Shown here piece after piece: positions 1,512-64,000 of a DNA stretch of 64,000 bases. The first letter of the stretch is position 1; each line of letters opens with the position of its first letter. Source of the DNA: Actinomycetes bacterium (GTDB taxonomy: Bacteria > Actinomycetota > Thermoleophilia > Gaiellales > F1-60-MAGs149); NCBI GenBank assembly GCA_025360225.1, contig JANYCN010000042.1, forward strand, positions 112,302-176,301. Reading direction: 5' to 3'. The notes beneath the pieces are model-generated. The model worked only from the letters and a program-made list of their open reading frames with translations. It did no database searches and had not been told where the DNA came from. The translations under genes and the position numbers were made by a program.

Positions 1512-1759
1512 CTAGCGGCCTGATGGCAAGGTCATTCGACTGCCCGGATCGTCCTGCGCCTGCTGGCTCCGCCACCCCTCGGGTGGCTGCGAAGCCCACG
1601 ACACCGCCTGGATCGTCCTGCGCTGGCCCGCTGCGCGACCCTGCGGGTGGCTACGCCGCCCAGGTCCGGCGACCACGCCCCGGCCCGCTCTGCGTGCCGG
1701 ATCATGGGCTTCGCTCCAGACACCCGAATGACGCCGCCCTTTGACAATCAGACCACTAG
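1512..1759. mobile_element. MITE-like element, copy A (248 bp), degenerate left end
   Basis: Right end tttgacaatcagaccactag (1740-1759). Left end ctagcggcctgatgg. Internal blocks shared with copy D, with the ggatcgtcctgcgc...gggtggc block duplicated. Confidence 0.75.
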
Positions 1760-8828: not shown

Positions 8829-10148
8829 GTGGGTGTGGGGACCGCCCGGCGCACCGTGCTGTTGCTCGTCCTCGCGATCCTCGCGACGACCGCCGCGGCA
8901 CCGGCGAGCGCCACGCCAACGGTGACGATCAGCGGCCACGGCAACGGGCATGGCATCGGCCTCAGCCAGTGGGGCGCTGAGGGGCTCGCGCGCGGCGGCG
9001 CGACCTACCAGCAGATCCTGCAGCACTACTACCCCGGCACGACGCTCGAGGTGCAGCCGAGCACAGGGATCCGCGTGCTCGTGCTCGAACGATCGCGGCT
9101 GAAGCTGGGCGTGGGGACGCTTGGAGCGGCAACGGCCGACGACGGCGACCCGATCGCGGTCAGGGGCGGGCTCACGGTCGTTCCACGCGCCGTAGGCGGC
9201 GTCGAGGTCCACGACGCATCGGGCGGGATCGTCACCGGCGGGCTCTGGATCCGGGTTCGCGCCGTGGAGCCGATCACGATCGGCGGCAACCCGTACCGGG
9301 GAAGCGTGCTCGTCCGTCGTGCCGGGTCGGTCGTCCAGGCGATCGACGACGTGGCGATCGACGACTACGTCCGCGGCGTGATCTCGTGGGAGGTGCCGTC
9401 GAGCTGGCTCCCGGACACGCTCGAGGCGCAGGCGGTCGCCGCCCGCTCATACGCCCTCGCCGAGCGGCGGCCAGGGCGACCGTTTGACGTGTACAGCGAC
9501 ACGCGCAGCCAGATGTACGGCGGGATCCGCGCCGAGCGGCTATCGACGGACGCCGCGGTCGCTGGCACCGCCGGCGTAACGGTGATGTACGCCGGCGAGA
9601 TCGCGACGACGTTCTTCTCCGACTCGAACGGCGGCCGGGTCGCCGCGATCGAGGACGTCTGGGGCGGCGCGCCGGTGCCCTACCTCCTCGCGACGCCCGA
9701 CCCGACCGACGCGATCGCGCCGTTCAACCACTGGACACCGCGAACGCTCTCGACGGCCGCCCTTGGGCGCGCGCTCGGGATCGGGCGCGTCACCGGCATC
9801 GCCATCGTCCGGAACGCCTCGCGGCGCGTCGCGAACGTCACCTTCACCCAGGCTGGGGGTGCCCAGACGACGCTCTCCGGCTCGACCGTGCAGAGCCGTC
9901 TCGGACTCCGGTCGAGCTGGTTCGGGCTGACGCTGCTCGACCTCCGCTCGGCACGGCGCAGCGGCAGGCGCGTGACGGTGCTCGGGACGATCTCACCCGC
10001 GGGCCCGGTCCGCGTCGAAGGACTGGTCGACGGCCAGTGGCTCTTGCTCGGCACGATCACGACGACGACCGGCGCGCTCCGCTGGCGTGGTCTCACCCAC
10101 GACGCGTCCGCGTTCCGGCTCCGCGCCGGAGACGCGGTGTCAGGCTAG
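8829..10148 (+). CDS. SpoIID/LytB domain-containing secreted protein
   Basis: Signal-like RRTVLLLVLAILATTAAAPASA. GHGIGLSQWGA and EAQAVAARSYAL...FFSDSNGG blocks. Start ambiguous (GTG 8802, 8829 or 8835). Stop TAG 10146-10148 is inside the CTAG end of element B. Confidence 0.75.
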   Translation: MGVGTARRTVLLLVLAILATTAAAPASATPTVTISGHGNGHGIGLSQWGAEGLARGGATYQQILQHYYPGTTLEVQPSTGIRVLVLERSRLKLGVGTLGAATADDGDPIAVRGGLTVVPRAVGGVEVHDASGGIVTGGLWIRVRAVEPITIGGNPYRGSVLVRRAGSVVQAIDDVAIDDYVRGVISWEVPSSWLPDTLEAQAVAARSYALAERRPGRPFDVYSDTRSQMYGGIRAERLSTDAAVAGTAGVTVMYAGEIATTFFSDSNGGRVAAIEDVWGGAPVPYLLATPDPTDAIAPFNHWTPRTLSTAALGRALGIGRVTGIAIVRNASRRVANVTFTQAGGAQTTLSGSTVQSRLGLRSSWFGLTLLDLRSARRSGRRVTVLGTISPAGPVRVEGLVDGQWLLLGTITTTTGALRWRGLTHDASAFRLRAGDAVSG

Positions 10149-10277
10149 TGGTCTGATTGTCAAAGGACGGCGTCATCGGGTGTCAGGAGCGAGCGGGGGC
10201 GTTGCGCGTCGCGCAGGGCTTGCCGGGGCAAGCGCAAGTGGCGCGCGACGCTCCCGCGAAACACAAAGCACTGCTAG
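10145..10277. mobile_element. MITE-like element, copy B (133 bp, short form, opposite orientation to D)
   Basis: ctagtggtctgattgtcaaagg... at the left. The interior matches the reverse complement of D blocks (ggagcgagcggg.gcgttgcgcgtcgcgcagggcttgc and gcaag.ggcgcgcgacgctcccgcgaa). Degenerate right end cacaaagcactgctag. Confidence 0.7.
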
Positions 10278-10336
10278 TGGTCGAGCGCGAGTTGAACAGC
10301 CGAGAACACCCATACGCAACGCCATCGATCGCCGAG

Positions 10337-10804: not shown

Positions 10805-11457
10805 TCCAGATCCGCCAAGAGCTCGTCATCGGGCACGTCGCGCAGGTACCGCGCAGGGCTGCCGACGACGACCGCCCGCGGGGCAACGTCCCGCAGCACC
10901 ACGGCGCCGGCCGCGACGAACGCCTCCGCGCCGATCTCGACGCCCGGCAGCAACGTCGCTCCACCACCCACACGCGCGCCCCGACGGATCGTCGCGCCCC
11001 GGATCAGCTCGTGCCGGCGCTCGGTGCGACCCATGAAGTTGTCGTTCGTGGTGACGACGCACGGGGCGATGAACACGTCGTCCTCGAGCAGGCAGTACGC
11101 CGTGATGTACGCGTTCGACTGGATCCGGCAACGCGCGCCGATCGTCGTGTCGTTCTCGACGCACACGCCGCGACCGATCACGCTGCCTGGACCCACCGAG
11201 CAGCGCTCGCGAACCGAGGCAAGGTCGCCGACGATCACCCCGGCCCCGAGCGTCGTGCCTGCATAGACGATCGCGCCGGTGGAGATCACGCAGCCCGCAC
11301 CGATCACCAGCGGTGCGAGCGGCTCGCGCCGCGCCGTCGAGGACCTGCCGAGCGTTGGCTGCTTGCCAACCACGGCGTTGTCGCCGATCCGTACGCCATC
11401 GCCAATCACCGTGCCGGGATGGATCACCACGTTGACGCCAAGCTCGGGAAGGCTCAT
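10801..11457 (-). CDS. hexapeptide-repeat (LbH) sugar N-acetyltransferase, WbpD/PglD-like
   Basis: 218 aa of imperfect [LIV]-G-x4 hexapeptide repeats. Adjacent to the sugar dehydrogenase/oxidoreductase genes. Confidence 0.75.
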   Translation of the reverse strand: MSLPELGVNVVIHPGTVIGDGVRIGDNAVVGKQPTLGRSSTARREPLAPLVIGAGCVISTGAIVYAGTTLGAGVIVGDLASVRERCSVGPGSVIGRGVCVENDTTIGARCRIQSNAYITAYCLLEDDVFIAPCVVTTNDNFMGRTERRHELIRGATIRRGARVGGGATLLPGVEIGAEAFVAAGAVVLRDVAPRAVVVGSPARYLRDVPDDELLADLD

Positions 11458-12458
11458 AGCTGCACCGTCGCGCCACCGGCGGCGAGCGAGCGCGTCAACC
11501 CGTCCAGCACCTCGACCACAGCGAGACCCTCCGCGCCGCTGGCGATCGGGTCGACACCCGTGCGGATCGCCTCGATGAACGCGCGCACCTCAAGCTGGAG
11601 AGGCTCGTCGCCCGCGATCCGGGGGATGCGGACATCTCCCGATCGCAGCGCCTGGAACTCGCCCCACGTCTCAAAACGGGCAGGCAGGGACGCGCGGTCG
11701 TACACCGTCACCTTGCGATCCGGGTCGGTGTCGTCAAAGACGACCATCCTCTCGGTGCCGACGACGGTGAGCATCCGCCGCTTGTGTGGGTCGAGCCACG
11801 ACAGGTGAAGGTGGGCGATCATCCCCGATGGGAACTGCAGGTAGGCGAAGACGACGTCCTCGATGCCGGGCTGGAGGTAGCACTCACCGCGCGCCGAGAC
11901 CGCCACGGGACGCTCGCCGGCAAGCGCCAGCGCCATCGAGAGATCGTGCGGGGCAAGGCTCCAGAGGGCGTTCTCGTCGGCACGGACCTTGCCGAAGTTC
12001 TGGCGGTTCGCATAGAGATAGAGCACCCGCCCGAGCTCGCCGTCCGCTGCCATCCGTTGCACCGCTTGAAAGCCCGGGTGGAAACGGAGCAGGTGGCCGA
12101 CCATCAGCCGCCGGTTGGCGGACCTCGCGGTGGCCACCAGGTCGGCCGCATCGGCGACGGTCAGCGCGAGCGGCTTCTCTACCAGCACGTGCTTGCCCGC
12201 GTCGAGCGCACGGCGAGCGAGGCGGTGGTGGGTCGACGACGCCGTCGCGACGACGACCGCGTCACACGTGTCATCGGCGAGAACCTCGTCGAGGTCGTCA
12301 GTGAACCGCGCCGTCGGGAACTGGCCGGCGAACCGCGCACGGTTCGCGGCGTCAAGGTCGCAGGCCCAGGCAAGCTCGCACCCTGGCACCCGTGCCAGGT
12401 TTCGTGCGAGGTTCGGTCCCCAGTAGCCGAGCCCGACGATCGCTACCCGCACGGGCAT
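11454..12458 (-). CDS. Gfo/Idh/MocA family oxidoreductase (WbpB-like UDP-sugar 3-dehydrogenase candidate)
   Basis: N-terminal Rossmann VRVAIVGLGYWGPN. Start uncertain (ATG 12458, 12479 or 12503). Confidence 0.75.
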   Translation of the reverse strand: MPVRVAIVGLGYWGPNLARNLARVPGCELAWACDLDAANRARFAGQFPTARFTDDLDEVLADDTCDAVVVATASSTHHRLARRALDAGKHVLVEKPLALTVADAADLVATARSANRRLMVGHLLRFHPGFQAVQRMAADGELGRVLYLYANRQNFGKVRADENALWSLAPHDLSMALALAGERPVAVSARGECYLQPGIEDVVFAYLQFPSGMIAHLHLSWLDPHKRRMLTVVGTERMVVFDDTDPDRKVTVYDRASLPARFETWGEFQALRSGDVRIPRIAGDEPLQLEVRAFIEAIRTGVDPIASGAEGLAVVEVLDGLTRSLAAGGATVQL

Positions 12459-16838: not shown

Positions 16839-16995
16839 CTAGTGCAGTGTCTGTCAGATGGCATGGTCATCGGGTGTCTGGAGCGAGCGGAAGCGTGCGG
16901 TCTGGTAGAGCCACCCGACGGGTGGCGGAGCCGGCAAGCGCAGGACGATCCAGGCGCACGAATGAGCACGCCATCTCACAATCAGACCAGTCTAG
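16839..16995. mobile_element. MITE-like element, copy C (157 bp, opposite orientation to D)
   Basis: ctagtgcagtgtctgtcagatggcatggtcatcgggtgtctggagcgagcgg ... gccacccgacgggtggc ... cacaatcagaccagtctag. Lacks the middle blocks of D. Confidence 0.75.
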
Positions 16996-17696
16996 GACTG
17001 CAGCTGCGCAGTGATCTGGGTGAGCTGGCCGGTGGCGAGGAGCACGCCGACGGTGATCAGGACGACACCTGAGACGCGGTTCACAACGCCCGCGTGCCGC
17101 TTGAACACGCCGAGCACGGCGAGCGTGGAGCCCATCGCGAGGCCCGCAGCGAGGAACGGCACAGCGAGGCCGAGAGAGTAGGCGCCCAGCAGGATCCCCC
17201 CACCGGTCGGGCCGGTCTGCGCCGCGAACGTGAGGATCGCCGTCAGCACGGGCCCGATACATGGTGTCCAGCCGATCGCGAACGCCGCGCCGGTGAGGTA
17301 GGCGCTGCCGAGGGAGGCGCGCCGCGTGCGCTTGTGCAGCCGCCACTCCCGTCCGAACACCCGCGATCCCATGCCGAGAAGCGCGAGGCCCATGACGATC
17401 ACGAGCGCGCCGCCGACGCGGTCAAGGAGGATCTGGTGGCGCTCGATCAGTCCACCCGCCCAGCCAGAGCCGGCGCCCATGCCGGTGAAGATCGTCGTAA
17501 AGCCAGCAGTAAAGAAGCCGGTGGCGAGCGTCACACGCCGCGCGTTCGCCTTCAGATCACCGTACGCGACGCCGGAGACGAACGACAGGTACGCCGGCAC
17601 GAGAGGCAGGACACACGGCGAGATGAACGAGGCGAACCCGGCGGCGAACGCCGTCGCGAGGCCCACCGGCGTGAGGCCGATCGCGGCGACGATCAC
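16992..17696 (-). CDS. ccdA: cytochrome c biogenesis / thiol-disulfide transfer membrane protein CcdA (DsbD family)
   Basis: FISPCVLPLVPAYLSF motif, multi-pass. Start set at GTG 17696, overlapping the tlpA-like stop (GTGA). Stop TAG lies in the CTAG end of element C. Confidence 0.85.
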   Translation of the reverse strand: MIVAAIGLTPVGLATAFAAGFASFISPCVLPLVPAYLSFVSGVAYGDLKANARRVTLATGFFTAGFTTIFTGMGAGSGWAGGLIERHQILLDRVGGALVIVMGLALLGMGSRVFGREWRLHKRTRRASLGSAYLTGAAFAIGWTPCIGPVLTAILTFAAQTGPTGGGILLGAYSLGLAVPFLAAGLAMGSTLAVLGVFKRHAGVVNRVSGVVLITVGVLLATGQLTQITAQLQS

Positions 17697-35269: not shown

Positions 35270-36077
<808 letters not shown>

Positions 36078-36132: not shown

Positions 36133-37023
36133 TCAGGAGCGAAGGATGTGGGTCTCCGCGAGCCCCGCGACCGCTTCGAGCCGATCGGCAAGCCGGACGA
36201 GCTCGTCGTGGGAGCTGATCCGCAGCTGTAGGGTGGCACCGTCAGTCGTCGACGTGACGCGGGCGTGGAGACCGAACGCGCGGTAACACGCGTCGACGGC
36301 GTCGGTCGCGACCTCGGCGTCGAGCCATGACGGCGCGGACGCATCCGTGCCGGCGCGGCGCCGCGTCGACGACGCCCGCGCAAGCGCTTCCGTCTGCCGC
36401 ACCGACAGCCCGTCGCGCACCGCTACGCGCGCGATCGACCGCTGCGACTCGACGCTCGTCGCCTGGAGGATGGCACGACCGTGGCCCTCGCTGAGGGCAC
36501 CGTCCTCGAGATGAGCGAGCACGTCGTCGGGCAGATCGAGAAGCCGCAGGGTGTTCGTCACGGTCGTCCGGCTCTTGCCGACCCGCTCCGCGATCTCGGA
36601 GGCCGCGAGCCCGAACTCGTCCGCGAGCGCGCCGTAGGCACGAGCGATCTCAACGGCATTCAGGTCCTCGCGCACCACGTTCTCGACGATCGCGAGCACG
36701 AGCGAGCCGCGATCGTCGATCGATCGGATCACCGCGGGGATCGTGCCAAGACCCGCCGCCTGCGCCGCGCGCCATCGGCGCTCGCCGGCAATCAGCTCGT
36801 ACGTGCCGTCGCCACGGTCCCGCACGGCGATCGGCGCGACGACGCCATCGCTGGCGACCGAGCGTGTCAGATCGGCAAGGGCCCCCTCGTCGAGCCGTCG
36901 CCGCGGTTGCCGGGCATTCGGGACGATGCGCGAGACATCCAGATCGACCATCGACGACCCGCCGGACGATGGATCGATCATCGCGACGAGCCCGCGCCCG
37001 AGACCACGCACGGGGCTAGCCAC
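36133..37023 (-). CDS. parB: chromosome partitioning protein ParB (Spo0J)
   Basis: Start set at GTG 37023 (VASPVRGLGRGLVAMI). GERRWRAA box and an HTH region. Confidence 0.9.
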   Translation of the reverse strand: MASPVRGLGRGLVAMIDPSSGGSSMVDLDVSRIVPNARQPRRRLDEGALADLTRSVASDGVVAPIAVRDRGDGTYELIAGERRWRAAQAAGLGTIPAVIRSIDDRGSLVLAIVENVVREDLNAVEIARAYGALADEFGLAASEIAERVGKSRTTVTNTLRLLDLPDDVLAHLEDGALSEGHGRAILQATSVESQRSIARVAVRDGLSVRQTEALARASSTRRRAGTDASAPSWLDAEVATDAVDACYRAFGLHARVTSTTDGATLQLRISSHDELVRLADRLEAVAGLAETHILRS

Positions 37024-37771
37024 GCTCGACGACCTCGAGGGCGAGCTTGTAGTAGGCCTCCGCGCCAGCCGAGTCCGGATCAAACGAGGTGATCGGCACG
37101 CCGTGAGAGGGCGCCTCAGCGAGCCGAACGGAGCGCGGGATGACGCTCTCAAACACCTTTGGGCCGAAGTGCGCCCGCACCTCACGCGCGACGTCTGCCG
37201 CGAGGCGGGTGCGGCCATCGTGCATCGTCAGCAACAGGCCAGTGAGCGCAAGCTGCGGGTTGACCCGGGCGCGGATGATCTCGACCGACTCAAGCAGCTG
37301 GGTGAGCCCCTCTAGCGCGTAGTACTCGCACTGGACCGGCACGATCAGACGGTTCGCGGCCGCGAGGGCGTTGAGGGTCAGCATGCCGAGCGACGGCGGG
37401 CAGTCGACGATCACGTAGGGATACTGCTCGCCGACCTCTGCGAGCGCCCGACCAAGCACCCGCTCGCGATCCTCCCGTCCAGGCAGCTCGACGGCCGCGG
37501 CCGCGAGGTCCGGGTGCGCCGGCGCGAGGTCGAGGTTCGGCACGCACGTCGCAACCGTGATCTCCTCAAACGTCGCGCCATGCAGGAGCTGGTAGGTCGA
37601 GCGGGCACGCGAGGGCCGGTGACCGAGCCCCGTCGTCGCGTTGGCCTGAGGGTCGAAGTCGACGAGCAGCACGCGTGCGCCCCCCTCGGCGAGGCACGCC
37701 GCCACGTTGATGGCGGTCGTCGTCTTGCCGACGCCGCCCTTCTGGTTCGCAAGTGCGTAGATGCGGGACAT
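37016..37771 (-). CDS. parA: chromosome partitioning ATPase ParA (Soj)
   Basis: Deviant Walker A KGGVGKTT. 251 aa. Confidence 0.95.
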   Translation of the reverse strand: MSRIYALANQKGGVGKTTTAINVAACLAEGGARVLLVDFDPQANATTGLGHRPSRARSTYQLLHGATFEEITVATCVPNLDLAPAHPDLAAAAVELPGREDRERVLGRALAEVGEQYPYVIVDCPPSLGMLTLNALAAANRLIVPVQCEYYALEGLTQLLESVEIIRARVNPQLALTGLLLTMHDGRTRLAADVAREVRAHFGPKVFESVIPRSVRLAEAPSHGVPITSFDPDSAGAEAYYKLALEVVERG

Positions 37772-37812
37772 TCAGGCGGTAGCGTAGTGGACGGGTCGGT
37801 CGGAGCGGCACC

Positions 37813-37828
37813 TGTTTCACGTGAAACG
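37813..37828. promoter_or_regulatory. parS centromere-like site (TGTTTCACGTGAAACG)
   Basis: 15/16 match to the ParB-binding consensus TGTTTCACGTGAAACA. Lies in the 3' end of rsmG, 42 nt upstream of parA. Confidence 0.85.
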
Positions 37829-38464
37829 GACGAAGGGACGCTTCAGCGCCACCGGTCCGTCGCGGGAACCGCTCGGGCGTCGGCCCCGTCTTGCGGAGCA
37901 CCACCAGATGGCGCCGCTCGCTGCCAGCGACCCGATCGAGGTGCTCCACCTCAGCGCCGAGCATCGCCGCGGCGGTGGCGAGCGCACCACCGTCGAAGGC
38001 GCCGGTGTACAGGATGACCGCGCCGCCTTCGCGGACGAAGGGAACGCAGAGCTCGGCCGCCACGACGGGGGGCGCGAGGGCCCGCGCTGTCGCGATCGCG
38101 TACAGCTCCCGCCGCCGTGTCGCAAACACCTCCGCGCGCTCGCAGACCACCGAAACCGTGGCGAGCGCGAGCTCGCTCACCGCTCGGGCGAGAAACGTCG
38201 CCTTCGTCCCGGTGGCCTCCAGCAACGTCAGCTCGCGGTCCGGAAAGCGGATGGCGAGCACGAGGCCTGGAACGCCCCCGCCGGACCCAACATCGATGAC
38301 GGGCCCAGGCCCCTCGGGCTCGATCAGGGGGCGGCGACGAGCGCGCCTTCGACGTGTCGCGCGTACGCATCGGGGTCCGATACGGCAGTCACACGTGTCG
38401 CCGACGCGGCCATCAGCGTGAGAAGCTGGCCGTAGCGCGGGTCGTCAGGCGAGACGGCTGGCAT
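37817..38464 (-). pseudogene. rsmG: 16S rRNA (guanine527-N7)-methyltransferase RsmG/GidB; reading frame interrupted twice
   Basis: Frame A from ATG 38464 reads MPAVSPDDPRYGQLLTLMAASATRVTAVSDPDAYARHVEGALVAAP, then TGA. The SAM-binding core (LIEPEGPGPVIDVGSGGGVPGLVLAIRFPDRELTLLEATGTK...ERFPRRTG) is in the -1 frame. The conserved tail ALKRPFVRFT* (stop 37817) is back in frame A. Confidence 0.7.
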
Positions 38465-38487
38465 CTCAGGCTGCTCGCCCCGCCATC

Positions 38488-38503
38488 TGTTTCACGTGAA
38501 ACG
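38488..38503. promoter_or_regulatory. parS centromere-like site (TGTTTCACGTGAAACG)
   Basis: Identical 17-mer (ctgtttcacgtgaaacg) to the site at 37812-37828. Lies between the jag stop (38504) and the rsmG start (38464). Confidence 0.85.
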
Positions 38504-39268
38504 CTACTCGGTGGAGGCGCCAGCGGGCGCGACCACGATAAACCGGTACGGCTCGCGCCCGTCGCTCGAGGTCTCGACGTCACCCTGGCCCTTGAGGAAC
38601 AGGTGGACGATCTTCCGCTCGACGCTCGTCATCGGCTCGAGCGAGACCGGCCGACCCAACCGCACCGCGTCGCTGGCGGCCCGGGTCGCCGTCTCATGCA
38701 ACGCCTGCTCGCGGCGACGGCGATAGTTCTGCGCGTCAATCACGACGTGCTTCCCGTCGTCGCCGCGCGTCAGGATCGCGTTCACCAGGTACTGCAGGGC
38801 ATCGATCGTCTTTCCGTGCTTGCCGATCACGAGCCCGAGGTCCTCGCCGCTCAGCGTGGCCGTCAGCTCCGTGTCCGACTCCGCGACGTGTACGGCGGCT
38901 TCTAGCCCGAGGCCGGACGCGATCGATACCACGAGGTCGCGAACCGCCGTTGCCTCGGCCGTATCGCTCTGCGGCGTCGAGGGGGCAGCGACGGCCCTGC
39001 GCGGTGCCTCGCTGCGTCGTGGTGCGCTGGGCCGCGGCGACGGCGAATCGGACTGCTCGCCCGCTCCGGACGGACGCTCGCCGAGCGTCGCGACGACGCG
39101 AGCAGGCTCGCGGCCGATGCCCATCAGGCCGCGCTCGCCCTCGGTCAGCACCTGGAACGCTACGCCCGTGCGGTCGAGGCCTGGGAAGCGGCGCTCGAGC
39201 TCGCGCAGGGCGGCCCACTTCGCCTCACCAACCGTCTCGCCCGTTGCCTCGTACGTCAGGTCGTCCAT
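38504..39268 (-). CDS. jag: Jag/KhpB-like RNA-binding protein (Jag_N, KH, R3H)
   Basis: Start set at ATG 39268, overlapping the yidC stop (ATGA). LIGKHGKTIDALQYL (KH) and SLEPMTSVERKIVH (R3H). Confidence 0.85.
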   Translation of the reverse strand: MDDLTYEATGETVGEAKWAALRELERRFPGLDRTGVAFQVLTEGERGLMGIGREPARVVATLGERPSGAGEQSDSPSPRPSAPRRSEAPRRAVAAPSTPQSDTAEATAVRDLVVSIASGLGLEAAVHVAESDTELTATLSGEDLGLVIGKHGKTIDALQYLVNAILTRGDDGKHVVIDAQNYRRRREQALHETATRAASDAVRLGRPVSLEPMTSVERKIVHLFLKGQGDVETSSDGREPYRFIVVAPAGASTE

Positions 39269-40047
39269 CAGCGACCCTTCCCCTTCGGCTCGGTCGGCGC
39301 TTTCGGCTTCGTCGACGCCATCTTCTTCGCGGGCGCAGGCGCAGGCGCAACGATCGGCGCGGGCGGCGGGTACCACTTCTTGATCACCGCGGCCTGACCG
39401 ACCGTCCAGATGTTGGTCGTGATCCAGTACAGCATCAGGCCGGTCTTGAAGTTCTGGTTGATGATGAAGAACGCGAACACGATCGGCAGTGCCGCGAAGA
39501 TGTACTTCTGCTTCGGGTCGACCGACGAGGGCATGAGCAGCGTCGAGCCGACCTGCGATCCAACGTAGATCACCATCAGGACCGCCAGCGTGAAGTTCGG
39601 CAGGTGGTTCAGCGGCGTCGTGATGTCGTGGATCGCACCGAACAGGAACGTCTTGTCGTCGCTCTCCGCGATGAAGCCCTTCGTGTCGCGCAACAGCAGA
39701 AAGAGCCCGAGGAAGATCGGCATCTGGGCGAGGAGCGGCAGACACGACGCGAACGGGTTGACCTTGTTGTCGCGGTAGAACTCCATCGTCTTCTGCTGGA
39801 GCATCTGCTTGTCGCCGCGGTACTTCTCCTGCAGCTTCTTGATCTCAGGCTGCACCGCCTGCATCCGCCGCATCGACTGCTGCTGCTTGACGGTGAGCGG
39901 CACGAGCGCAAGGCGGACGATCACCGTGAGGATGATGATCGACCAGCCCCAGGAGACGCCGGAGACCGTGTGGATGTGCTCGAGCAGCCATCGCAGCGGC
40001 CCGGTGACGGGCGAGAGAATGGACTCGTACAGGCTAAGCGTCGTCAT
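39268..40047 (-). CDS. yidC: membrane protein insertase YidC (short, Gram-positive type)
   Basis: IIILTVIVRLALVPLTVKQ...KVNPFASCLPLLAQMPIF blocks. Confidence 0.9.
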   Translation of the reverse strand: MTTLSLYESILSPVTGPLRWLLEHIHTVSGVSWGWSIIILTVIVRLALVPLTVKQQQSMRRMQAVQPEIKKLQEKYRGDKQMLQQKTMEFYRDNKVNPFASCLPLLAQMPIFLGLFLLLRDTKGFIAESDDKTFLFGAIHDITTPLNHLPNFTLAVLMVIYVGSQVGSTLLMPSSVDPKQKYIFAALPIVFAFFIINQNFKTGLMLYWITTNIWTVGQAAVIKKWYPPPAPIVAPAPAPAKKMASTKPKAPTEPKGKGR

Positions 40048-40271
40048 CGTGGCACCGGGTCATATCCGCCGTGGCTCCATGGGTTGCAGCGCAGCAGGCG
40101 CCAGAGGGCGAGCAGACCACCGCGCACCAGGCCGTGGGCGCGGAGCGCGTCCTCGGCGTAGGACGAGCAGGTCGGCTCGTAACGACAGACTCGACCCGCG
40201 GACGCGCCGCCGGGCCAGAGGGGGCGCAGAACATAGCGATAGAGCCCGCGAACGACACGAAGGAGGATCAT
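40044..40271 (-). CDS. yidD: membrane protein insertion efficiency factor YidD
   Basis: CRYEPTCSSYA...CNPWSHGGYDPVP signature. Confidence 0.9.
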   Translation of the reverse strand: MILLRVVRGLYRYVLRPLWPGGASAGRVCRYEPTCSSYAEDALRAHGLVRGGLLALWRLLRCNPWSHGGYDPVPR

Positions 40272-40633
40272 GAAGGACCAGCCTCGCCCGCGATCAGAGC
40301 ACGGAGCTCGTCGACCAGCCAGACGAACCCCTGCGTCTCGATCGCCTCGGCCGCGCCGGATCGAGCAACGATCACGACGTCTGAGCCAAGAGGTAGCGCG
40401 AACCCCGGCGAGGCGACGGCCTCGCGGAGCTGCCGCTTGACGCGGTTACGCACGACGGCGTTGCCGACCTTCTTGGGCACGGCGACGCCGACGCGCGGTG
40501 CCTCAGCATCCTCGCGCGGGAACAACGACACGACGAGGTGACGGCTCGACCGCGAACGGCCGCGCCGGTAGACGGCGTCGAAGTCGGCCGACCGGGTGAG
40601 CCGGCGGCGCGCAGCGGTCGACGGCGCGTTCAC
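40268..40633 (-). CDS. rnpA: ribonuclease P protein component
   Basis: RLTRSADFDAVYRRG...VGVAVPKKVGNAVVRNRVKRQLRE (RNR motif). Confidence 0.9.
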   Translation of the reverse strand: MNAPSTAARRRLTRSADFDAVYRRGRSRSSRHLVVSLFPREDAEAPRVGVAVPKKVGNAVVRNRVKRQLREAVASPGFALPLGSDVVIVARSGAAEAIETQGFVWLVDELRALIAGEAGPS

Positions 40634-40638
40634 GGTGA

Positions 40639-40773
40639 TCAGGCCGAGAGGTTCTTGCGGCCTCGCGCGCGGCGCTTCTTGATCACGGCGCGGCCGGCGG
40701 CAGTGGCCATGCGCTTGCGGAATCCGTGCGCCTTGGCACGCTTGCGGACGTTCGGCTGGTAGGTGCGCTTCAT
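40639..40773 (-). CDS. rpmH: 50S ribosomal protein L34
   Basis: [44 protein letters not shown] (44 aa). The ORF-track entry 40639..40947 is an upstream extension. Confidence 0.95.
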
Positions 40774-41092
40774 TGGCTCGTCAGTCGCAGGGATAAACGA
40801 CCGCGGGAGGCGGCCGGAGGCGCAGTATACGTGGTCGCGCCGTGCGGACCGCCAGGCACCGTGCGCGTTGGGACAACGATGCCACCTCAGCCGCTTGAAT
40901 TCCTGCCAGATACAGGAAAGACGCGTTATCCACAGCTGGGGATACATCTGGGGATAGCGTCTTTTTCCTGCAAAATGCGCACTTTCCTACGAGCGCACTG
41001 GCGACGAGAGCGACGCAGCCTTGCTATCGTCTCTCGGCGTTGGAGCGTGGCTCCAGCGAGGCGAGGGATGACGGCCGGAGGCTGGCGTACGC
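40774..41092. other. oriC, rpmH-dnaA part: DnaA-box cluster plus a relatively AT-rich stretch
   Basis: Perfect TTATCCACA at 40926-40934. Box-like sites on the reverse strand: TTATCCCTG (40788-40796), TTGTCCCAA (40868-40876), GTATCCCCA (40937-40945), CTATCCCCA (40949-40957). AT-richer gtctttttcctgcaaaatgcgcactttcc at ~40958-40987. Confidence 0.8.
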
Positions 41093-42508
41093 GTGGACGA
41101 AGGGCAGAGAGCATCGGCGGTATCCGCGTGGAGCGACGTCGCTGGGCGCCTGCAGGAGACGCTCAACGAGACTGCCTGGTCGGCCTGGTTCGCCGGCGCT
41201 GTGCCACACGGCCTCGCTGATGCGACGCTCGAGGTGACGCTCCCGAACGAGTTCACCCGTCAGTGGATCGAGGGGCATTTCGCGTCGCTCGTCGCCGCTG
41301 CAGCCCACGAGGCGGCCGGTGGCCCGCTCGACATCTCCTTCCGTGTTGCACCACAGCCATCGGTTCGACCGCGTCCGGTGGCGCGCGAGGACGCCCAACG
41401 GCCGGCCGTTGACACGACGACGGCGACACGAGCCCGGCGTCCGTACCCCGACCGAGACGACCGCCGAGAACGGCGGTTCGACGTCCACCCGCTCAACCCG
41501 AAGTACACGTTTGATCACTTCGTCATCGGGTCGTCGAACCGCTTTGCGCACGCTGCAGCGTTGGCCGTCGCCGAGGCGCCAGCGCAGGCCTACAACCCGC
41601 TGTTCATCTATGGACCGACAGGCCTGGGGAAAACCCACCTCCTGCAGGCGATCGGTCACTACCTCCGAGCCGAGACTCCCGGACTGCGTTGTCGCTACGT
41701 CACGAGCGAGTCGTTCGTCAATGACTTTATCGGCGATTTGCAGGAGAAACGCCTCGAACAGTTCAAGGCGCGCTATCGCACGTACGATCTTCTCCTGGTC
41801 GACGACATCCAGTTTCTGGGTGGCAAGGAGCGTATCCAGGAGGAGTTTTTCCACACCTTCAACAGCCTGTACGAGGCCGGCGGGCAGATCGTGCTCAGCT
41901 CCGACAGGCCCCCGCGTGACATCCCGAAGCTCGAGGAGCGCCTCCGGTCACGGTTCGAGTGGGGCCTGATCACCGACGTCCAGCCACCTGATCTGGAGAC
42001 AAGGATCGCCATCCTGCGGAAGAAGGCGCAGCGCGATGCGATCCGCGTGGCCGACCAGTCCGTGCTCTCAGCGATCGCCTCGCGGATCCAGACGAACATC
42101 CGTGAGCTTGAAGGCGCCTTCACACGGGTCGTTGCATACGCCTCGCTGAACGGCGTCGGCATCTCCGAGGAGCTCGTTCGGGACGTCCTACGCGACCAGT
42201 TCCCGGAGGGAGCACGTCCGGTCACTGCCGAGCAGATCCAGAAGGTCGTTGCCGACGCGTTCAACGTCTCCATCGCCGACCTGAAGGGTGACCGTCGGAC
42301 GCAGCAGTTCGTGTACCCGCGACAGCTCGCGATGTACCTGTGCCGAGAGCTGACGGACCTCTCGCTGCCGAAGATCGGACAGCGCTTCGGTGGCCGCGAC
42401 CACACGACGGTGCACTATGCAGAGTCGAAGATCACGCGGCTCCTCAGCGAGGACCGCCAGGCCTACAACCTGGTGCAGGACCTCACAGCGCGTATTCGCC
42501 GCATCTGA
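41093..42508 (+). CDS. dnaA: chromosomal replication initiator protein DnaA
   Basis: GTG start. Walker [12 protein letters not shown]. Domain IV ...[34 protein letters not shown]. Confidence 0.95.
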
Positions 42509-42823
42509 GCGTGCCGTTGGGCGCTCGCCGGTTCGGGGACTCCGGAACGGGGACGGTAGACGCCGCCTGCAACGCCTGGGGATAGCCGTGGGATGACCTT
42601 GGGGGGCGTGCCCTTCGTTCCCCAGACAGGGGCAGCTCACCGCCGTTTCCGAGTCTTGGCTCCACATCATCCGACACTCGCTCCCATGGTCATCCCACGC
42701 GCTCTACGGCGTCAACCGGTGGTGGGGAGGCCGATCGGATGGTTATCCCAACGCTCCCCGGTACCTACTACGAGGACGAGGGTACGTAAACTACTCGTGT
42801 CCTTATTGGAGGCTCCTGAGACC
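42509..42823. other. oriC, dnaA-dnaN part: second DnaA-box cluster and AT-richer segment
   Basis: CTATCCCCA (rev, 42577-42585). TCATCCCAC as an inverted pair (rev 42588-42596, fwd 42690-42698). TTATCCCAA (42743-42751). AT-richer gtacgtaaactactcgtgtccttattgg at ~42782-42809. Confidence 0.65.
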
Positions 42824-43930
42824 TTGAAGATCACCTGTTCGACAACCCACCTCGCTGACCGTCTGGCGATCGCCTCGCGTGCCACCTCAACGCGGGCGTC
42901 AATCCAGGTTGCGTCGGGGATCCGAATCAGCGCGCCCGACGCTGAAGGGCCCGTCGAGCTCGCTGCCACCGACCTCGAGCTGTCTCTCCGCGTGCCGCTT
43001 GACGCCGAGGTGGAGGAGCCAGGGTCGGTCGTCCTTCCGGCGCGGGTCGTGCACGACATCGTGCGCCAGCTCCGTACCGATCGGGTGACGATCACCTCCA
43101 CGAGCGGCGATGGTCGCGCGAAGATCACCTCCGGCTCAGGCGAGTACGGCGTGCACACGCACCCCGTTGAAGACTTCCCTCGTCTACCGGAGATCGACGC
43201 GGAGCGCACCTTCGAGCTCGACCGTCAGGTGTTCGGCGGCACGGTCGACCGGGTCATCCGCGCGGCCTCGAAGGACGAGTCGCGTCCCGTGCTCACCGGC
43301 GTGCTCGTGCACCTCGAGCCAGGTCGTCTGACGATGGCAGCGACGGACTCCTACCGCATGGCGGTTCGCGAGACGGCGCTTGCGGACGTCGTGCCGGAGC
43401 CGGTTGAGGCGATCGTCCCGGCGCGCGCGCTCGCAGAGCTCGGCCGGCTGCTCGGGTCGTCGAGCGGAACGCTCGCGGTCTGCGTCGACCGCAATATGAT
43501 CGCGTTCGGTGTCGACGGCGTCTGGCTCACCGCGCGACGCATCGAGGGCCAGTTCCCGAACTTCCGCTCGCTGAGGCCGGCAGCGTTCGAGCATGAGGTT
43601 CGCCTGCCGCGGGCTGAACTGCTCGACGTCGTTAAGCGCGTCGGGATCTTCGCTCGGAACAACGCGCCGCTTCGGCTCTCGTTCGCGCCCGGCGAGCTGA
43701 CGGTCTCCGCGTCGACGCCCGACGTCGGCGATGCGCAGGAGACGATCCCCGCATCGTTCGGCGGCGACCCGTTCTCGATCGGCTTCAACGCCGACTTCTT
43801 CCGCGACGGCCTCGATGTGACCGAAGGCGACGACACGACGGTGCAGATGATCAACCCGATCCGCCCCGCCGTGCTCGGCGGCTCTGACGACGGCTTCTGG
43901 TATCTGATCATGCCGATCCGCCTGTCGTAG
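42824..43930 (+). CDS. dnaN: DNA polymerase III beta sliding clamp
   Basis: Frame of ORF 42593..43930. Start set at TTG 42824 (LKITCSTTHLADRL), 11 nt after GGAGG. 368 aa. Confidence 0.9.
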   Translation: MKITCSTTHLADRLAIASRATSTRASIQVASGIRISAPDAEGPVELAATDLELSLRVPLDAEVEEPGSVVLPARVVHDIVRQLRTDRVTITSTSGDGRAKITSGSGEYGVHTHPVEDFPRLPEIDAERTFELDRQVFGGTVDRVIRAASKDESRPVLTGVLVHLEPGRLTMAATDSYRMAVRETALADVVPEPVEAIVPARALAELGRLLGSSSGTLAVCVDRNMIAFGVDGVWLTARRIEGQFPNFRSLRPAAFEHEVRLPRAELLDVVKRVGIFARNNAPLRLSFAPGELTVSASTPDVGDAQETIPASFGGDPFSIGFNADFFRDGLDVTEGDDTTVQMINPIRPAVLGGSDDGFWYLIMPIRLS

Positions 43931-43950
43931 CGGCAGGATCGGCCGCCGAC

Positions 43951-45042
43951 ATGCAGGTCGAACGCCTGCGGGTGACGCAGTTTCGCTGCTACGAGCGCGC
44001 TGACGTGACGTTCGCCGCAGGTGTGACGGCCATCGTCGGAGCGAACGGCGCCGGAAAGACGAGCCTGTTGGAGGCGGCGCACCTTGCCCTCACAGGCTAC
44101 TCGCCGCGTACAACGAACGACGCTCGCTGCGTGCAGGAAGGAGCGGCGTTTCTCCGCGTCGAGGCAGAGGTCGTTGCGCGCGGCTCGTCACACGACGTCA
44201 GCGTTGGCTTCGAGCCAGGTGTCCCGAAACGCGTCACCCTCGACGGCAAGAGCCTTCGATCGAGGGACCAGCTCGACGCCTGGTGGACGTGTCTCGTCTT
44301 CCTTCCCGACCGCCTCGCTGTCGTGAAACGTGCGCCAGCCGTGCGACGCGCCTACCTCGACCGCGCGACGAGCCGCCTGGAGCCAGCCCATCTCACCGAG
44401 GTGCTCGCCTACACCCGGGCCCTGACGCAGCGCAACGCCCTCCTGAGACGGGTCAGAGCTGGCGTCACGCCTGGAGCGGCGCTGGACGTCTGGGACGTCG
44501 TGCTCGCGAAGCACGGTGCGGCGATCATCGCTGCTCGCTCCCGGACGTGTGCCGCCCTCGCCCCGCTGTTCGCGGAGCGCCTTGTGGCGCTCGGCGGTCC
44601 CGGAGGTAGCACCCTGACCTACCGACCGCGCCTCGACGGTGGGGAGAAGGATCTGCTCGCCGCCCTCGAGGCACGCCGTGGTGTTGACATCGACCGTGCG
44701 GTGTCCGGCACCGGGCCGCACATGGACGACGTCCTGCTGAGCGAACGCCGGCGCGATCTCCGCGTCTACGGCTCACAGGGCGAGCAGCGCACGGCGGTCC
44801 TCGCCCTCCTCCTAGCCGAGGCGCGACTGATCGTCGAGCGGCGAGGGGAAGAGCCGATCCTGCTGCTCGATGACGTCCTCTCCGAGCTCGACACCGGCCG
44901 TCGCCGTCGGCTCATCGAAACGGTGCGCGAGCACGGTCAGGCGTTGATCACGACGACGGAGGTCGCTCACCTGCCGGAGCCACCGGATGGCGTGCTGGTG
45001 GTCTCCGCGGGCTCCGTTGCTCCGCTCGTCGAGCGCGGATAG
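43951..45042 (+). CDS. recF: DNA replication/repair protein RecF
   Basis: Walker A GANGAGKTSLLEA. Signature GSQGEQRT. Walker B ILLLDDVLSELD. Confidence 0.95.
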   Translation: MQVERLRVTQFRCYERADVTFAAGVTAIVGANGAGKTSLLEAAHLALTGYSPRTTNDARCVQEGAAFLRVEAEVVARGSSHDVSVGFEPGVPKRVTLDGKSLRSRDQLDAWWTCLVFLPDRLAVVKRAPAVRRAYLDRATSRLEPAHLTEVLAYTRALTQRNALLRRVRAGVTPGAALDVWDVVLAKHGAAIIAARSRTCAALAPLFAERLVALGGPGGSTLTYRPRLDGGEKDLLAALEARRGVDIDRAVSGTGPHMDDVLLSERRRDLRVYGSQGEQRTAVLALLLAEARLIVERRGEEPILLLDDVLSELDTGRRRRLIETVREHGQALITTTEVAHLPEPPDGVLVVSAGSVAPLVERG

Positions 45043-45051
45043 CCTGCTGGC

Positions 45052-45525
45052 GTGACGCGCCCACGCAGCCTCGTACCGGTCGGTGAGCTGGTCGGCGCCC
45101 TCGTTCCACCGTCCGCGGGCGGCACGAGCCTCGTGCCGATCAGCCGCGCCTGGGCGTCCGTCGTCGGGCCCGTGATCGCGCGGGAGAGCTGGCCGGCGCG
45201 GATTGGAGCGGATGGCACCCTGCACGTTCACGTCACGAGCTCGCTGTGGGTGAGCGAGCTCACGCTGCTCGGAGCGGACATCCTTGGGCGACTGGTCGCG
45301 GCGGTCTCGGTGACGGGAGTGAGCAGCGTCAGCTTCCGCGTTGGCACCGTCCCGGTCGCGCCCGTGAGGAGAGAAGCACCGCCGCCGCCCGTCACCAGTC
45401 CGGCCGCGATCGCGGCTGCTCGCGAGCTTGCCTCGGTGATCGCTGACCCGGCCCTCCGCGAGGCCGCGCGGCGGGCGATCGAGCGGGCGATCGTGCGGTC
45501 CATCAGCACCCCTGATTCGGGATAA
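45052..45525 (+). CDS. DUF721 / DciA-like protein
   Basis: Conserved recF-gyrB position. ...W..VVGPVIARESWPARIGADGTLHVHVTSSLWVSELTLL is typical of DUF721. Confidence 0.75.
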   Translation: MTRPRSLVPVGELVGALVPPSAGGTSLVPISRAWASVVGPVIARESWPARIGADGTLHVHVTSSLWVSELTLLGADILGRLVAAVSVTGVSSVSFRVGTVPVAPVRREAPPPPVTSPAAIAAARELASVIADPALREAARRAIERAIVRSISTPDSG

Positions 45526-50587
<5,062 letters not shown>

Positions 50588-61639: not shown

Positions 61640-62359
61640 GCGTTCCCGCCCAACTCCCCGTGTTCGAGGTCGAGGCATCAGACACGGTTCACGCCACCGT
61701 TCGTGACGAGGTGTTCAGGCGCGCTTGCTCCGTGCCCCGCGGGACGCGATCACCGTGGGCGCGATCCTTCTGTTCGGGCGAGCGCCGCAGTCGCGGCTCC
61801 CGCAGGCCTACGTCCGCGTGACGCGTTTCCGCGGCACGGAGCTCGGCACGGGCGAGCGCCTCGAGGTCCTGACTGACGTCCGGTGTGAGGAACCCTCTCC
61901 GAGCAGCTGGAGGCCGCGCGCGCGGCCGTTCTCGGTGCCGTGCCGACGCGGCAGGCCCTGGGCGCGGATGGCCGGTTTGGTCGAGTGTCGCTCATCCCGC
62001 ACGATGCCTGGCTCGAGGGACTCGTCAACGCCGTCGTGCATCGGTCATACAGCAGTGGCGGAGACCACATCCGCGTCGGCGTGTTCGATGATCGAATGGA
62101 GATCGAGAGCCCTGGTCGGTTCCCGGGACTGGTCGAGATCGGCGATCCCTCAAGCGTCACGCGGCTCGCCAGGAGCCTCCGAATTGCTCGCGCGCTTGCT
62201 GGGTTGCGGTTTGGCGTGGAGCGGGGCGAGGGCGTGCGCGGGATCTTCGACGAGATGCTCCGCGCCGGTCTGGGTGACCCGGTGTACTTCCAGACTGCAG
62301 GTAGCGTGCGACTGACCCTCAGGACTTCCCGTGTTGAACGTGAGCGGCTAGTGGTCTGA
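61640..62359 (+). pseudogene. decayed AlbA_2 (Schlafen-like) / HATPase_c_4 'putative ATP-dependent DNA helicase RecG-related' type gene; N-terminally truncated, at least 2 frameshifts
   Basis: Three successive frames read PVFEVEASDTVHATVRDEVF (to ~61715), AITVGAILLFGRAPQSRLPQAYVRVTRFRG...TDVRCE (to ~61885), then LSEQLEAARAAV...IPHDAWLEGLVNAVVHRSYSSGGDHIRVGVFDDRMEIESPGRFPG...ERGEGVRGIFDEM. The stop TGA lies inside element D. Confidence 0.6.
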
Positions 62360-62664
62360 TTGTGAAATGGCGTGGTCATCCGACTGCCTGGATCGTCCTG
62401 CGCTTGTCGGCTCTGCCACCCGTCGGGTGGCTACGCCGCTCAGCTCCGGCGACCGCGATCCGGCCCGCTCTGCGTGCCGGATCGTGGGCTTCGCGGGAGC
62501 GTCGCGCGCCGCTTGCACTTAGCGTGTCAAGGCCTTCGCCTTGACACGCGTGCGAGCGGGCGCGCTATCCAGCACGCCCGCGATCAGCAAGCCCTGCGCG
62601 ACGCGCAACGCTCCCGCTCGCTCCAGACACCCGATGACCATGCCATTTGACAATCAGACCACTA
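62347..62664. mobile_element. MITE-like element, copy D (318 bp, longest and best preserved)
   Basis: Left end ctagtggtctgattgtgaaatggcgtggtcatc versus the reverse complement of the right end ctagtggtctgattgtcaaatggcatggtcatc (31/33). Internal hairpins at 62415-62431 and 62524-62547. Confidence 0.8.
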
Positions 62665-62857
62665 GCGGCGCTTCCGCATGGTGGCGAGGAGATCCCCTCG
62701 CTCCGTCGCGACCGCGGCGAAGCACGTACGGGGGACGTCGTCGAGCTCGGCGGGATGTCGCGTCCCGCCGCCAGCCGCCGTCGCCGCGCACTCGAGGCCC
62801 TCGGGCTCGTCCGTTGGTGTGGCACGAGCCGTCGCGATCCGCGCGCGTCGTGGCGCC

Positions 62858-64000
62858 TTAGCGGCTGAGGGCTTCCTCGGCGAGCATCCGCCCGAGCAGC
62901 AGCAGGGCGCCGTCGCGGGAGAGGTGCTCGTTCAGGTTGCCGCACTTCGGCGACTGCACGCAGCTCGGACATCCATCGGTGCAGGCGCAGTCGCGCAGCA
63001 GGTCGCGGGTGTCGCGCACGAGGTCCTCGAAGCGCCGGTAGCCCTGGCGAGTGATCCCGACCCCGCCCGGGTGCCCGTCGTAGATCGTGATGCTCGGCAC
63101 CGTCGCGCCGGAGCGGTCGACGACGGAGAGGCCACCGATGTCCCACCGGTCGCACATCGCGTGCAGCGGTAGCAGCGAGATCATCGCGTGCTCGGCCGCG
63201 TGCAGGCAGTCGAGCGGGTCGCCGCAGCCGGCGGAGAGAGCGCCTGGCACCTCGAACCAGAGCGCGCGTGTGCTGAACGTCTGCGCCGGGAGGTCGAGCT
63301 CGACGTGGGCGAGCACCTCGTGGTCGGGGAGGCGGACGCGCTGGTAGCCGACGACGCGCTCGGTAACGGAGACCGCTCCGTAGCGCAGGCGCACGCCGAG
63401 CGTGTCGCGCTCCTGCTCGATCGCATCGACGCTCGTTGCCTCGAGCGACTGGACGCGCGTGTACTCGGCGCCGTCGAACGGCTCGACCACCGCGACGAGC
63501 TCGTCGAGGTCGAGCGACGCCACGCGGTAGCTCTCACCGAGGTGCAGGTAGATCGCACCGTCATGCACGGTCCGACCCGCCCGCGAGCGCTCGACGGTGC
63601 CGAGGAGCAGCCCGGTCTCGCCATCGATGATCGAGACCGTCTCCAACGTGCCCGAGCGCAGCGAGACGGCGGCGGCCGGGTACCGCCTCCCGGTGTGCGC
63701 GATCCCGGCTGGTGTCACCGCGAGCTCGCCGCCCTCGGTCAGCCGCAGGGCGGCGGCGTACGCGCCGGCGCCGAGGATGGCGTCGTCTGCCTCGCGGATC
63801 GGTGCCTCGTAGGCAGCGCAGAGGAGGTGGCCGTGGCGTACATCGGGCGCCGCGTGGTCAAGCAGCGCCGCCTCGACCGGGCGCTCGAGGAGCCGCTCGG
63901 GGTGGCGCAGGCAGTACTGGTCGAGCGCGTCGGCGGTTGCAACCATCATCGCGAGCCCTGCCCCGGACCGGCCGGCGCGTCCCCACTGCTGCGTCAGGCT
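62858..64000 (-). CDS. DEAD/DEAH-box helicase, C-terminal part with DUF1998 (MrfA/YprA-like) zinc domain; 5' end lies beyond the right window edge
   Basis: ORF 62858..63949 is open upstream to the edge (...SLTQQWGRAGRSGAGLAMMVATAD..., helicase motif VI QxxGRAGR). C-terminal CxxGCPSCVQSPKCGN four-Cys cluster. Confidence 0.75.
   Translation of the reverse strand, partial: SLTQQWGRAGRSGAGLAMMVATADALDQYCLRHPERLLERPVEAALLDHAAPDVRHGHLLCAAYEAPIREADDAILGAGAYAAALRLTEGGELAVTPAGIAHTGRRYPAAAVSLRSGTLETVSIIDGETGLLLGTVERSRAGRTVHDGAIYLHLGESYRVASLDLDELVAVVEPFDGAEYTRVQSLEATSVDAIEQERDTLGVRLRYGAVSVTERVVGYQRVRLPDHEVLAHVELDLPAQTFSTRALWFEVPGALSAGCGDPLDCLHAAEHAMISLLPLHAMCDRWDIGGLSVVDRSGATVPSITIYDGHPGGVGITRQGYRRFEDLVRDTRDLLRDCACTDGCPSCVQSPKCGNLNEHLSRDGALLLLGRMLAEEALSR

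Follow-up and report, generated by a model that had tools for sequence, protein, structure and literature searches.

The stretch of DNA analysed here, referred to as the window, comprises 64,000 nucleotides (64 kb) of contig JANYCN010000042.1 (assembly GCA_025360225.1, positions 112,302 to 176,301), which is assigned to an Actinomycetes bacterium. The window contains four related non-coding segments, A to D, each closed on both sides by the tetranucleotide CTAG and carrying terminal inverted repeats (TIRs). An earlier note, made from the letters of the sequence, had described four segments with common ends and common internal blocks, and this is upheld by reading of the segments, by repeat finding and by a blastn search of each segment against the window. 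We consider it very probable that the segments belong to a family of non-autonomous DNA transposons, resembling transposable elements of the miniature inverted-repeat type (MITEs), that inserts at CTAG.

Element D is the fullest copy in the window. It is 318 bp long (62348..62665, forward strand) and consists, in order, of CTAG, a left TIR (TIR-L), three modules named M1, M2 and M3, a right TIR (TIR-R) and CTAG. The element had been recognised in the earlier note at 62347-62664; measured from CTAG to CTAG its coordinates lie one base further to the right. M1 (62384..62445, forward strand) contains a GGATCGTCCTGCGC box and a hairpin with a 7-bp stem, GCCACCCGTCGGGTGGC, at 62415-62431. The motif of this hairpin is GCCACCCnTCGGGTGGC. 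M2 (62446..62494, forward strand) is a hairpin block, CCGGCGACC...GATCCGGCCCGCTCTGCGTGCCGGATCGTGGGCTTCGC, also written GATCCGGC...GCCGGATC, which is found in A and in copy E, a further copy on another contig (L092:10254-10491, assembly GCA_043763365.1). M3 (62495..62615, forward strand) is a long imperfect palindrome, GGGAGCGTCGCGCGCC ... GCGCGACGCGCAACGCTCCC, with a variable apex that in D forms a hairpin at 62524-62547. This hairpin, with its 9-bp stem, is unique inside the window as had been claimed, but it is not confined to D, the same apex peptide stretch being encoded in two open reading frames (ORFs) on other contigs, P0008 and P0138.

Element A is 248 bp long (1512..1759, forward strand). 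It has a degenerate TIR-L, M1 in two tandem copies with a 64-nt period (hairpins at 1571-1587 and 1635-1651), M2 at 1666-1714, no M3, and a TIR-R at 1727-1759. Elements B (133 bp, 10145..10277) and C (157 bp, 16839..16995) are both inverted, lying on the reverse strand. B consists of TIR-R (10145-10177), a short M3 and the tip of TIR-L, and is without M1 and M2; C consists of TIR-L (16955-16995), M1, the tail of M3 and TIR-R (16839-16871). The short form of M3 is present in B and in copy E, and C retains only its last ~14 nt. The GGATCGTCCTGCGC box with its hairpin occurs twice in A and once each in C and D. By repeat finding, A and D have a block of 112 nt in common with 87% identity, and the block common to B and D is 80-91% identical. 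The reusable interior blocks that had been listed earlier (the hairpin block, a block common to A and D and a block common to B and D) are present as listed, and within the window no module occurs outside a TIR-bounded element. The full element, as represented by D and copy E, comprises a left end of ~33 bp, up to three GC-rich hairpin modules and an imperfectly inverted right end of ~33 bp. The shorter copies probably derive from it by tandem duplication of M1 (A) and by internal deletion (B and C); replication slippage and deletion between the hairpin modules would account for this interior variation.

The ends of the elements read CTAG-TGGTCTGATTGT...ACAATCAGACCA-CTAG. Five instances of the TIR core, TGGTCTGATTGTSARAKG, are present in the window where 0.07 would be expected, and a 25-nt sub-terminal block occurs three times with none expected. 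When the ends are used to build an nhmmer profile, the profile recovers seven ends from the 64 kb, no more and no fewer, and produces no stray matches. In D, the left TIR (L type, 62348..62380, forward strand) and the right TIR (R type, 62633..62665, reverse strand, located by repeat finding, end profile and end comparison), both taken with their CTAG, are identical at 31 of 33 positions. Weaker likeness extends to ~45-50 nt in the profile, in agreement with the ~45 bp proposed earlier. The ends of the other copies are more divergent: the two TIRs match at 24-25 of 33 positions in C and E, and those of A and B are still recognisable. The left TIR of A has a deletion of ~8 nt, the left end of B is reduced to a degenerate TIR tip of ~17 nt closing at the CTAG at 10274-10277, and in C the TIR-L has a 2-nt insertion beside CTAG and the TIR-R a cluster of substitutions. 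As the copies are 85-91% identical and the ends of A, B and C are damaged, A to D are likely to be old, decayed insertions that are probably no longer mobile.

The two ends are distinguishable from each other. L-type ends contain ...GTGAAATGGCGTGG... followed by CCGACTGCCTGGATCG, and R-type ends contain ...GTCAAA... followed by CGGGTGTCTGGAGCGAGCG; these diagnostic differences are identical in every copy, which points to one asymmetric ancestor. Identity between the left ends of different copies, and between their right ends, is 27-31 of 33 positions, compared with 24-31 of 33 between the left and right ends of a single copy. Since same-side identity between copies equals or exceeds the identity within a copy, the ends appear to evolve as two orthologous sets and not as a maintained stem.

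Just after the right-hand CTAG of B (10274-10286) the flank reads TGGTC, which makes CTAGTGGTC a direct repeat of the canonical TIR's first 9 nt. The likeness may have arisen by chance, at odds of about 1 in 1000, or may be what is left of a second element that was deleted from that CTAG.

CTAG is found at all ten of the ends examined, of which eight are in the window and two belong to copy E. This word is rare in the DNA, with 25 sites in the window against ~54 expected from the trinucleotide and TA counts (CTA, TAG and TA). The ends of the elements account for eight of the 25 sites, and among the others at least three serve as stop codons of confident genes. TAG is used as the stop codon by 11 of 39 likely genes in the window (TGA by 20, TAA by seven). 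Three genes end inside an element's CTAG, and in each case the protein has an exact match. The MobA-like NTP-transferase gene (1756-2505, reverse strand) has its TAG at 1756..1758, inside the right CTAG of A (P0009). The SpoIID-domain gene (8829-10148, forward strand) has its TAG at 10146..10148, inside the left CTAG of B (P0011). The CcdA/DsbD_TM gene (16992-17696, reverse strand) has its TAG at 16992..16994, inside the right CTAG of C (P0013). In copy E, the TAG stop of a gene encoding 415 amino acids (L092:10488-10490) lies inside the terminal CTAG. A fifth instance seems to be P0137, whose stop would have been mutated so that the ORF now enters the element. One CTAG away from the elements' ends (10801-10804) serves as the stop of two convergent genes, arr (forward strand, TAG) and a hexapeptide-repeat transferase gene (10804-11589, reverse strand, CTA).

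Because CTAG is depleted and several of the remaining sites are TAG stops, an element that requires CTAG will often land on a stop codon, and because the target is duplicated the stop codon is rebuilt after insertion. Insertion at TAG stops would thus be nearly harmless. A 4-bp duplication of CTAG (tips TG...CA) and a duplication of TA within CTAG (tips GTGG...CCAC) yield identical sequence. A 6-bp duplication of the form NCTAGN is excluded because T invariably follows the left CTAG and A invariably precedes the right CTAG, both bases belonging to the element; in D the left end has GCTAGT and the right end ACTAGC.

Direct evidence of insertion comes from D. All four segments had been taken to be intergenic, which does not hold for D, as it interrupts the remnant of a gene. 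The ORF that runs into the left TIR of D encodes the HATPase_c_4 domain of a 'RecG-like ATP-binding' regulator (61889..62347, forward strand, Pfam E-value 4.9e-15). The other half of the same gene, encoding a winged-helix domain, lies downstream of D (62662..62868, forward strand, stop codon at 62866-62868) and is in frame after excision of the element. When 62348-62661 is removed and one CTAG is kept, the two halves join in frame into a protein of 221 amino acids ending at 62868. This joined protein has 416 homologues; among the best 120, most, numbering more than 100 intact proteins, cover 97-100% of it and many have the C-terminal winged helix. The junction aligns without gaps to eight intact homologues with 55-65% identity (VERERL|AALPHGG compared with VDRELEARLPPGG). 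A gapless protein restored by precise excision is direct evidence that D was inserted.

The gene that hosts D (61725-62347 and 62662-62868) is a pseudogene independently of the element, with a change of frame near 61889. It is also without the N-terminal (AlbA_2-type) part that is present in longer homologues.

A second line of evidence is an orthologous empty site, of the kind that the earlier note had looked to as a check. In an ENA metagenome contig (L061) from a related population, the convergent zf-HC2 anti-sigma and MobA-like genes have only a 16-nt spacer between them, and A is absent. The empty site reads CTAC where the window has CTAG, a synonymous change (GGG/GGC) in the last glycine codon. 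The CcdA locus of a relative (L060) was considered as an empty site for C and rejected, as it has another stop codon and another downstream gene.

Further copies outside the window, also anticipated earlier, are provided by copy E and by read-through ORFs on other contigs. Across 175 nt, copy E and D are 88.6% identical. D was also translated in six frames and run in full with HMMER against 1.84 billion representative proteins; this identified P0008, P0137, P0138, P0139 and P0140, of which a word-indexed search with the same translation found P0008 alone. All five ORFs come from NCBI assemblies, P0138 occurring on four contigs, and for four of the five the underlying copy is known from the protein sequence alone. 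Short-read (Logan) contigs of the same organism also stop within the elements, four of them in A, three in C and one in D, as is expected of a dispersed repeat in a de Bruijn assembly.

Some of these ORFs are products of annotation. P0008 (698 amino acids) is an artefactual fusion of an MFS-like protein, the element and a LytR protein in the annotation of a metagenome-assembled genome (MAG). The C-terminus of P0137 reads 59 amino acids into the element, and P0139 is an ORF of 202 amino acids that is mostly translated repeat.

The elements have no coding character. None of their frames has gene-like GC3 (0.58-0.74, compared with 0.8-0.9 in real genes), and this, together with the absence of any transposase similarity by tblastn, agrees with the earlier view that they carry no transposase-like ORF and that the small ORFs within them are not genes. 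With a length of 133-318 bp, TIRs, a target duplication, and dispersed copies that differ in presence and absence between relatives, these non-coding segments have the properties of MITEs. The earlier proposal of a non-autonomous DNA transposon is thus supported by the TIRs with CTAG, the restored reading frame, the empty site, the additional copies and the lack of coding signal.

The hairpins raise the alternative that the segments are functional RNA or DNA structures, such as terminators, insulators between convergent genes or 3'-end stabilisers, kept by selection whether or not they originated as transposons. The positions of the elements fit such a role: A, C and E each separate the ends of two convergent genes, and stop codons directly precede A, B, C and E. 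The M1 hairpin is retained in most copies, and D folds far better than shuffled sequences, with z-scores of -16 and -20 on the two strands. Equal folding of both strands is, however, what is expected of DNA palindromes, and the z-score for B is -1. A conserved non-coding RNA with covariation, which the earlier note had named as an outcome at odds with a transposon, was not found. There is no match in Rfam 15 at the gathering score, and a permissive Rfam search of D and A returned only chance matches to miRNA-precursor hairpins. Among five aligned copies of the M1 hairpin there are compensatory changes in none of the 17 predicted pairs, the substitutions observed break pairs, and the two ends of a copy do not co-vary. 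Consensus scans of the four copies in the window found neither a sigma-70-type promoter nor an intrinsic terminator. Module content also varies by copy, the orthologous site in a relative is without the element, and one copy sits in a dead gene. We therefore regard selection for a functional structure as a very unlikely explanation of the family.

Two further explanations concern how the copies came to be dispersed. The earlier note had offered as an alternative that they are repeats resembling repetitive extragenic palindromes (REPs) or bacterial interspersed mosaic elements (BIMEs). On that view a RAYT-type (Y1/HUH) transposase, or else recombination, would have dispersed them, instead of a DDE transposase working on inverted ends. 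The GC-rich, palindromic character of the modules, their place at the ends of genes and the block-wise variation in length are reminiscent of these repeats, and a different short palindrome, AAGTGCACGGCGCGCGCSGTGCACTT, occurs twice beside copy E, so that the lineage may have REP-like repeats. REPs are single palindromes of 20-40 nt without long TIRs or target duplications. The elements described here, at 133-318 bp, have 33-bp TIRs, a constant flanking CTAG and a target duplication, and precise excision of D restores a reading frame; their modules never occur outside a TIR-bounded element in the window, and no Y1 transposase was seen among the ~70 window ORFs checked, so a REP/BIME-like origin seems highly improbable. 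It is just as improbable that four full-length insertion sequences (ISs) inserted independently and were each reduced to the present segments by internal deletion, without any non-autonomous mobilisation. The blocks retained in the interior do differ, and B and C look like deletion derivatives; against this, A, C, D and E keep the non-coding hairpin modules in the same order, no remnant of a transposase gene is seen in the interior, and the L and R diagnostic differences are the same in all copies. Multiplication of one non-autonomous ancestor is the simplest account of these features.

Several observations weigh against the interpretation as a MITE-like family. Duplication of TA cannot be told from duplication of CTAG by sequence, so the length of the target duplication is either 2 or 4 bp. 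One clean empty site and one interrupted gene are documented, and the count of copies refers to the window (four per 64 kb) and to other contigs, and is not genome-wide. No autonomous element with the same ends was found: Pfam detected no transposase among the ~70 window ORFs scanned, and neither the window nor two flanking loci gave a tblastn match to six IS481-family transposases and a fragment of an IS5-family transposase. Blastn of plasmids with D and with the 51-nt TIR, at E-values up to 10, found no similar ends. JGI metagenome contigs are without a copy: a 28-nt degenerate TIR gave no match and the 19-nt TIR tip gave three chance matches. A GyrB protein with 93% identity exists in a JGI source and yet no JGI copy was found, which suggests that the family may be very narrowly distributed, or old.

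Other searches gave chance matches or none. There is no copy in a further 8.7 kb upstream of the window, and viral contigs gave chance matches only. A scan of a genome collection with an 18-nt degenerate TIR core, a pattern that was too loose, gave 49 chance matches in unrelated taxa, none of which extended. The confirmed copies all come from NCBI MAG contigs and from metagenome assemblies that represent this organism or one very close to it. The literature was searched for the TIR string and for MITEs that target CTAG in Actinobacteria, and no description was found. The family is previously undescribed, and the kind of element to which it belongs is well known.

The nearest documented case is MITEPsy1 of Pseudomonas syringae, an element of 100 nt with 18-nt TIRs and a 4-nt duplication of CTAG or YTAA, which is thought to derive from the IS5-family element ISPsy2 (PMC3189936). 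Like the elements described here it is small, non-coding, TIR-bounded and present in multiple copies, and it duplicates CTAG; both also have the heptamer GGTCTGA near the tip (p ~0.02). The present TIRs are far longer (33-50 nt) than those of MITEPsy1, the interior is structured and modular, the host belongs to another phylum, and the likeness of the tips is weak. For the IS5 group as a whole, a 4-bp duplication of YTAR/CTAG is compatible with the window elements, and the tip is TGG... here instead of GGAAGG....

The IS481 family provides a parallel from within the Actinomycetota. ISRe46/TnRErm46 of Rhodococcus (Prescottella) equi has a CTAG target, and the TAG of CTAG supplies the stops of neighbouring target genes (PMC6794481), as it does for A, B, C and E; its TG...CA tips and its actinobacterial host also correspond. 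We compared ISRe46 and ten IS481-family elements from Actinomycetota plasmids, in six of which the ends (12 in all) could be defined. All six read CTAG-N-TGT..., that is, they have a 6-bp duplication of NCTAGN. Their inverted repeat has the consensus TGTnnTGTCCnGGGAGGTTGG in five of the six, and that of ISRe46 differs (TGTTGCGGGTCATGACGTTG). Smith-Waterman comparison of the present ends with 10 ends of five IS481-family elements gave z-scores of ~0 in 19 cases out of 20, the remaining one being an outlier at 3.6. Membership of the IS481 family is therefore not supported: the CTAG target fits, but the register differs, and neither the 6-bp duplication nor similarity of the inverted repeats is found. 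What we take to be the end of IS481 from Bordetella pertussis has a likeness to the present ends with p ~0.015-0.02, which is rejected as a claim of membership.

Other transposase families are compatible with parts of the evidence. IS630/Tc1-mariner elements typically have TIRs of 20-30 bp that are bound by a helix-turn-helix domain. According to Tenzen and Ohtsubo (1991), as cited in PMC2170065, the insertion site of IS630 is the TA within 5'-CTAG-3', and this TA is duplicated. A duplication of TA in CTAG would give CTAG...CTAG as found here, with an element that starts with G and ends with C. IS3-family elements have TG...CA tips and duplications of 3-4 bp (3-5 bp). The present tips are also TG...CA, if the duplication is CTAG. 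The terminal repeat of ISPsy24, an IS3-family element, is TGTAGTGGTCTAATGAAACCGGACAC (PMC3189936). Its left end and the present tip both contain TAGTGGTCTnAT, with p ~0.001 uncorrected for ~30 comparisons. This similarity depends on the target's TAG, without which p is ~0.08; the host phylum differs, and the match is a lead only. The earlier note had suggested an IS630/Tc1-like or an IS5-like parent, and an IS3/IS481-like one is added here as a third candidate. A rough weighting puts an IS630/Tc1-like transposase slightly ahead, an IS5-like and an IS3/IS481-like one level with each other and just behind it, and one of some other family a little lower, each of them being less likely than not.

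Short, hairpin-rich, non-coding repeats at gene borders, TIR-bounded or modular, whose length variants result from the gain and loss of internal modules, are also known as the Correia elements (CREE/NEMIS) of Neisseria and the BOX elements of Streptococcus pneumoniae, and in these respects they resemble the family described here. The 26-bp TIR of the Correia element begins TATAGTGGATTAA... and the element is confined to Neisseria (sequences from PMC5039591). The present elements have no sequence relationship to Correia or BOX elements, occur in another host and have no promoter consensus. A relationship to Correia elements is rejected, as the hexamer TAGTGG alone is in common with the Correia TIR (p ~0.13).

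The elements lie among ordinary chromosomal genes. The window has a G+C content of 70%, and Pfam scans, which took in about 70 of its ORFs, assign these to ordinary chromosomal functions. They include the replication-origin cluster parB-parA-jag-yidC-dnaA-dnaN-recF-gyrB-gyrA at 36136-50587. On the reverse strand are parB (36136-37227), parA (37019-37771), jag/KhpB (38507-39745) and yidC (39271-40059), as well as a tRNA-Ile(GAT) gene at 36004-36077; on the forward strand are dnaA (41072-42505), dnaN (42593-43930), recF (43951-45042), gyrB (45643-48036) and gyrA (48029-50587), with dnaN and gyrA assigned by position only. The gene for a rifampin ADP-ribosyltransferase (Arr-ms, arr, 10157-10804, forward strand, Pfam E-value 8e-40) is directly downstream of B, so that B occupies the arr upstream region. 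Two candidate starts of arr, at 10277 and 10337, do not match the deposited protein. GyrB is 59-61% identical to its best named relatives, which belong to the Gaiellales (Thermoleophilia), and up to 93% identical to metagenomic relatives; exact matches to window proteins recur in several Logan and ENA metagenome assemblies. The host is an uncultured, soil-type, Thermoleophilia-like actinobacterium and the elements are chromosomal.

The contig that carries copy E has a repeat of its own. A GC-rich palindrome of 26 nt, AAGTGCACGGCGCGCGC[G/C]GTGCACTT, occurs twice within 200 nt upstream of E (L092:9971-9996 and L092:10142-10167). It is absent from the window and may be a REP-like repeat of that genome.

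Under the interpretation as a MITE-like family, a transposase of the DDE type encoded elsewhere in the genome would bind the two ~33-bp ends and insert the element at CTAG. Insertion would leave CTAG on both sides, and an element landing at a gene end would regenerate the TAG stop. A more speculative and rather improbable extension is that the family is mobilised by an undescribed transposase lineage with strict CTAG specificity, that convergent genes have co-opted the hairpin modules lying between them as 3'-end structures, or both. It is prompted by ends that match none of the IS481, IS5, IS3 and Correia ends compared, and by the insertion at TAG stops, which puts hairpins where terminators act.

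The family does not open a new kind of system. Its consequences for this uncultured lineage are practical: it disrupts short-read assemblies at predictable places, and it generates spurious or fused ORFs in MAG annotation, as in P0008, P0137 and P0139. A consensus of the family would aid the finishing and annotation of these genomes and would serve as a marker for strain-level differences in insertion. The elements are also a clean case of a rare tetranucleotide steering a mobile element to gene ends. An IS481-family transposon of Rhodococcus has been reported to follow the same logic of CTAG and stop codon; in the present case a miniature element of a distant actinobacterial class does so.

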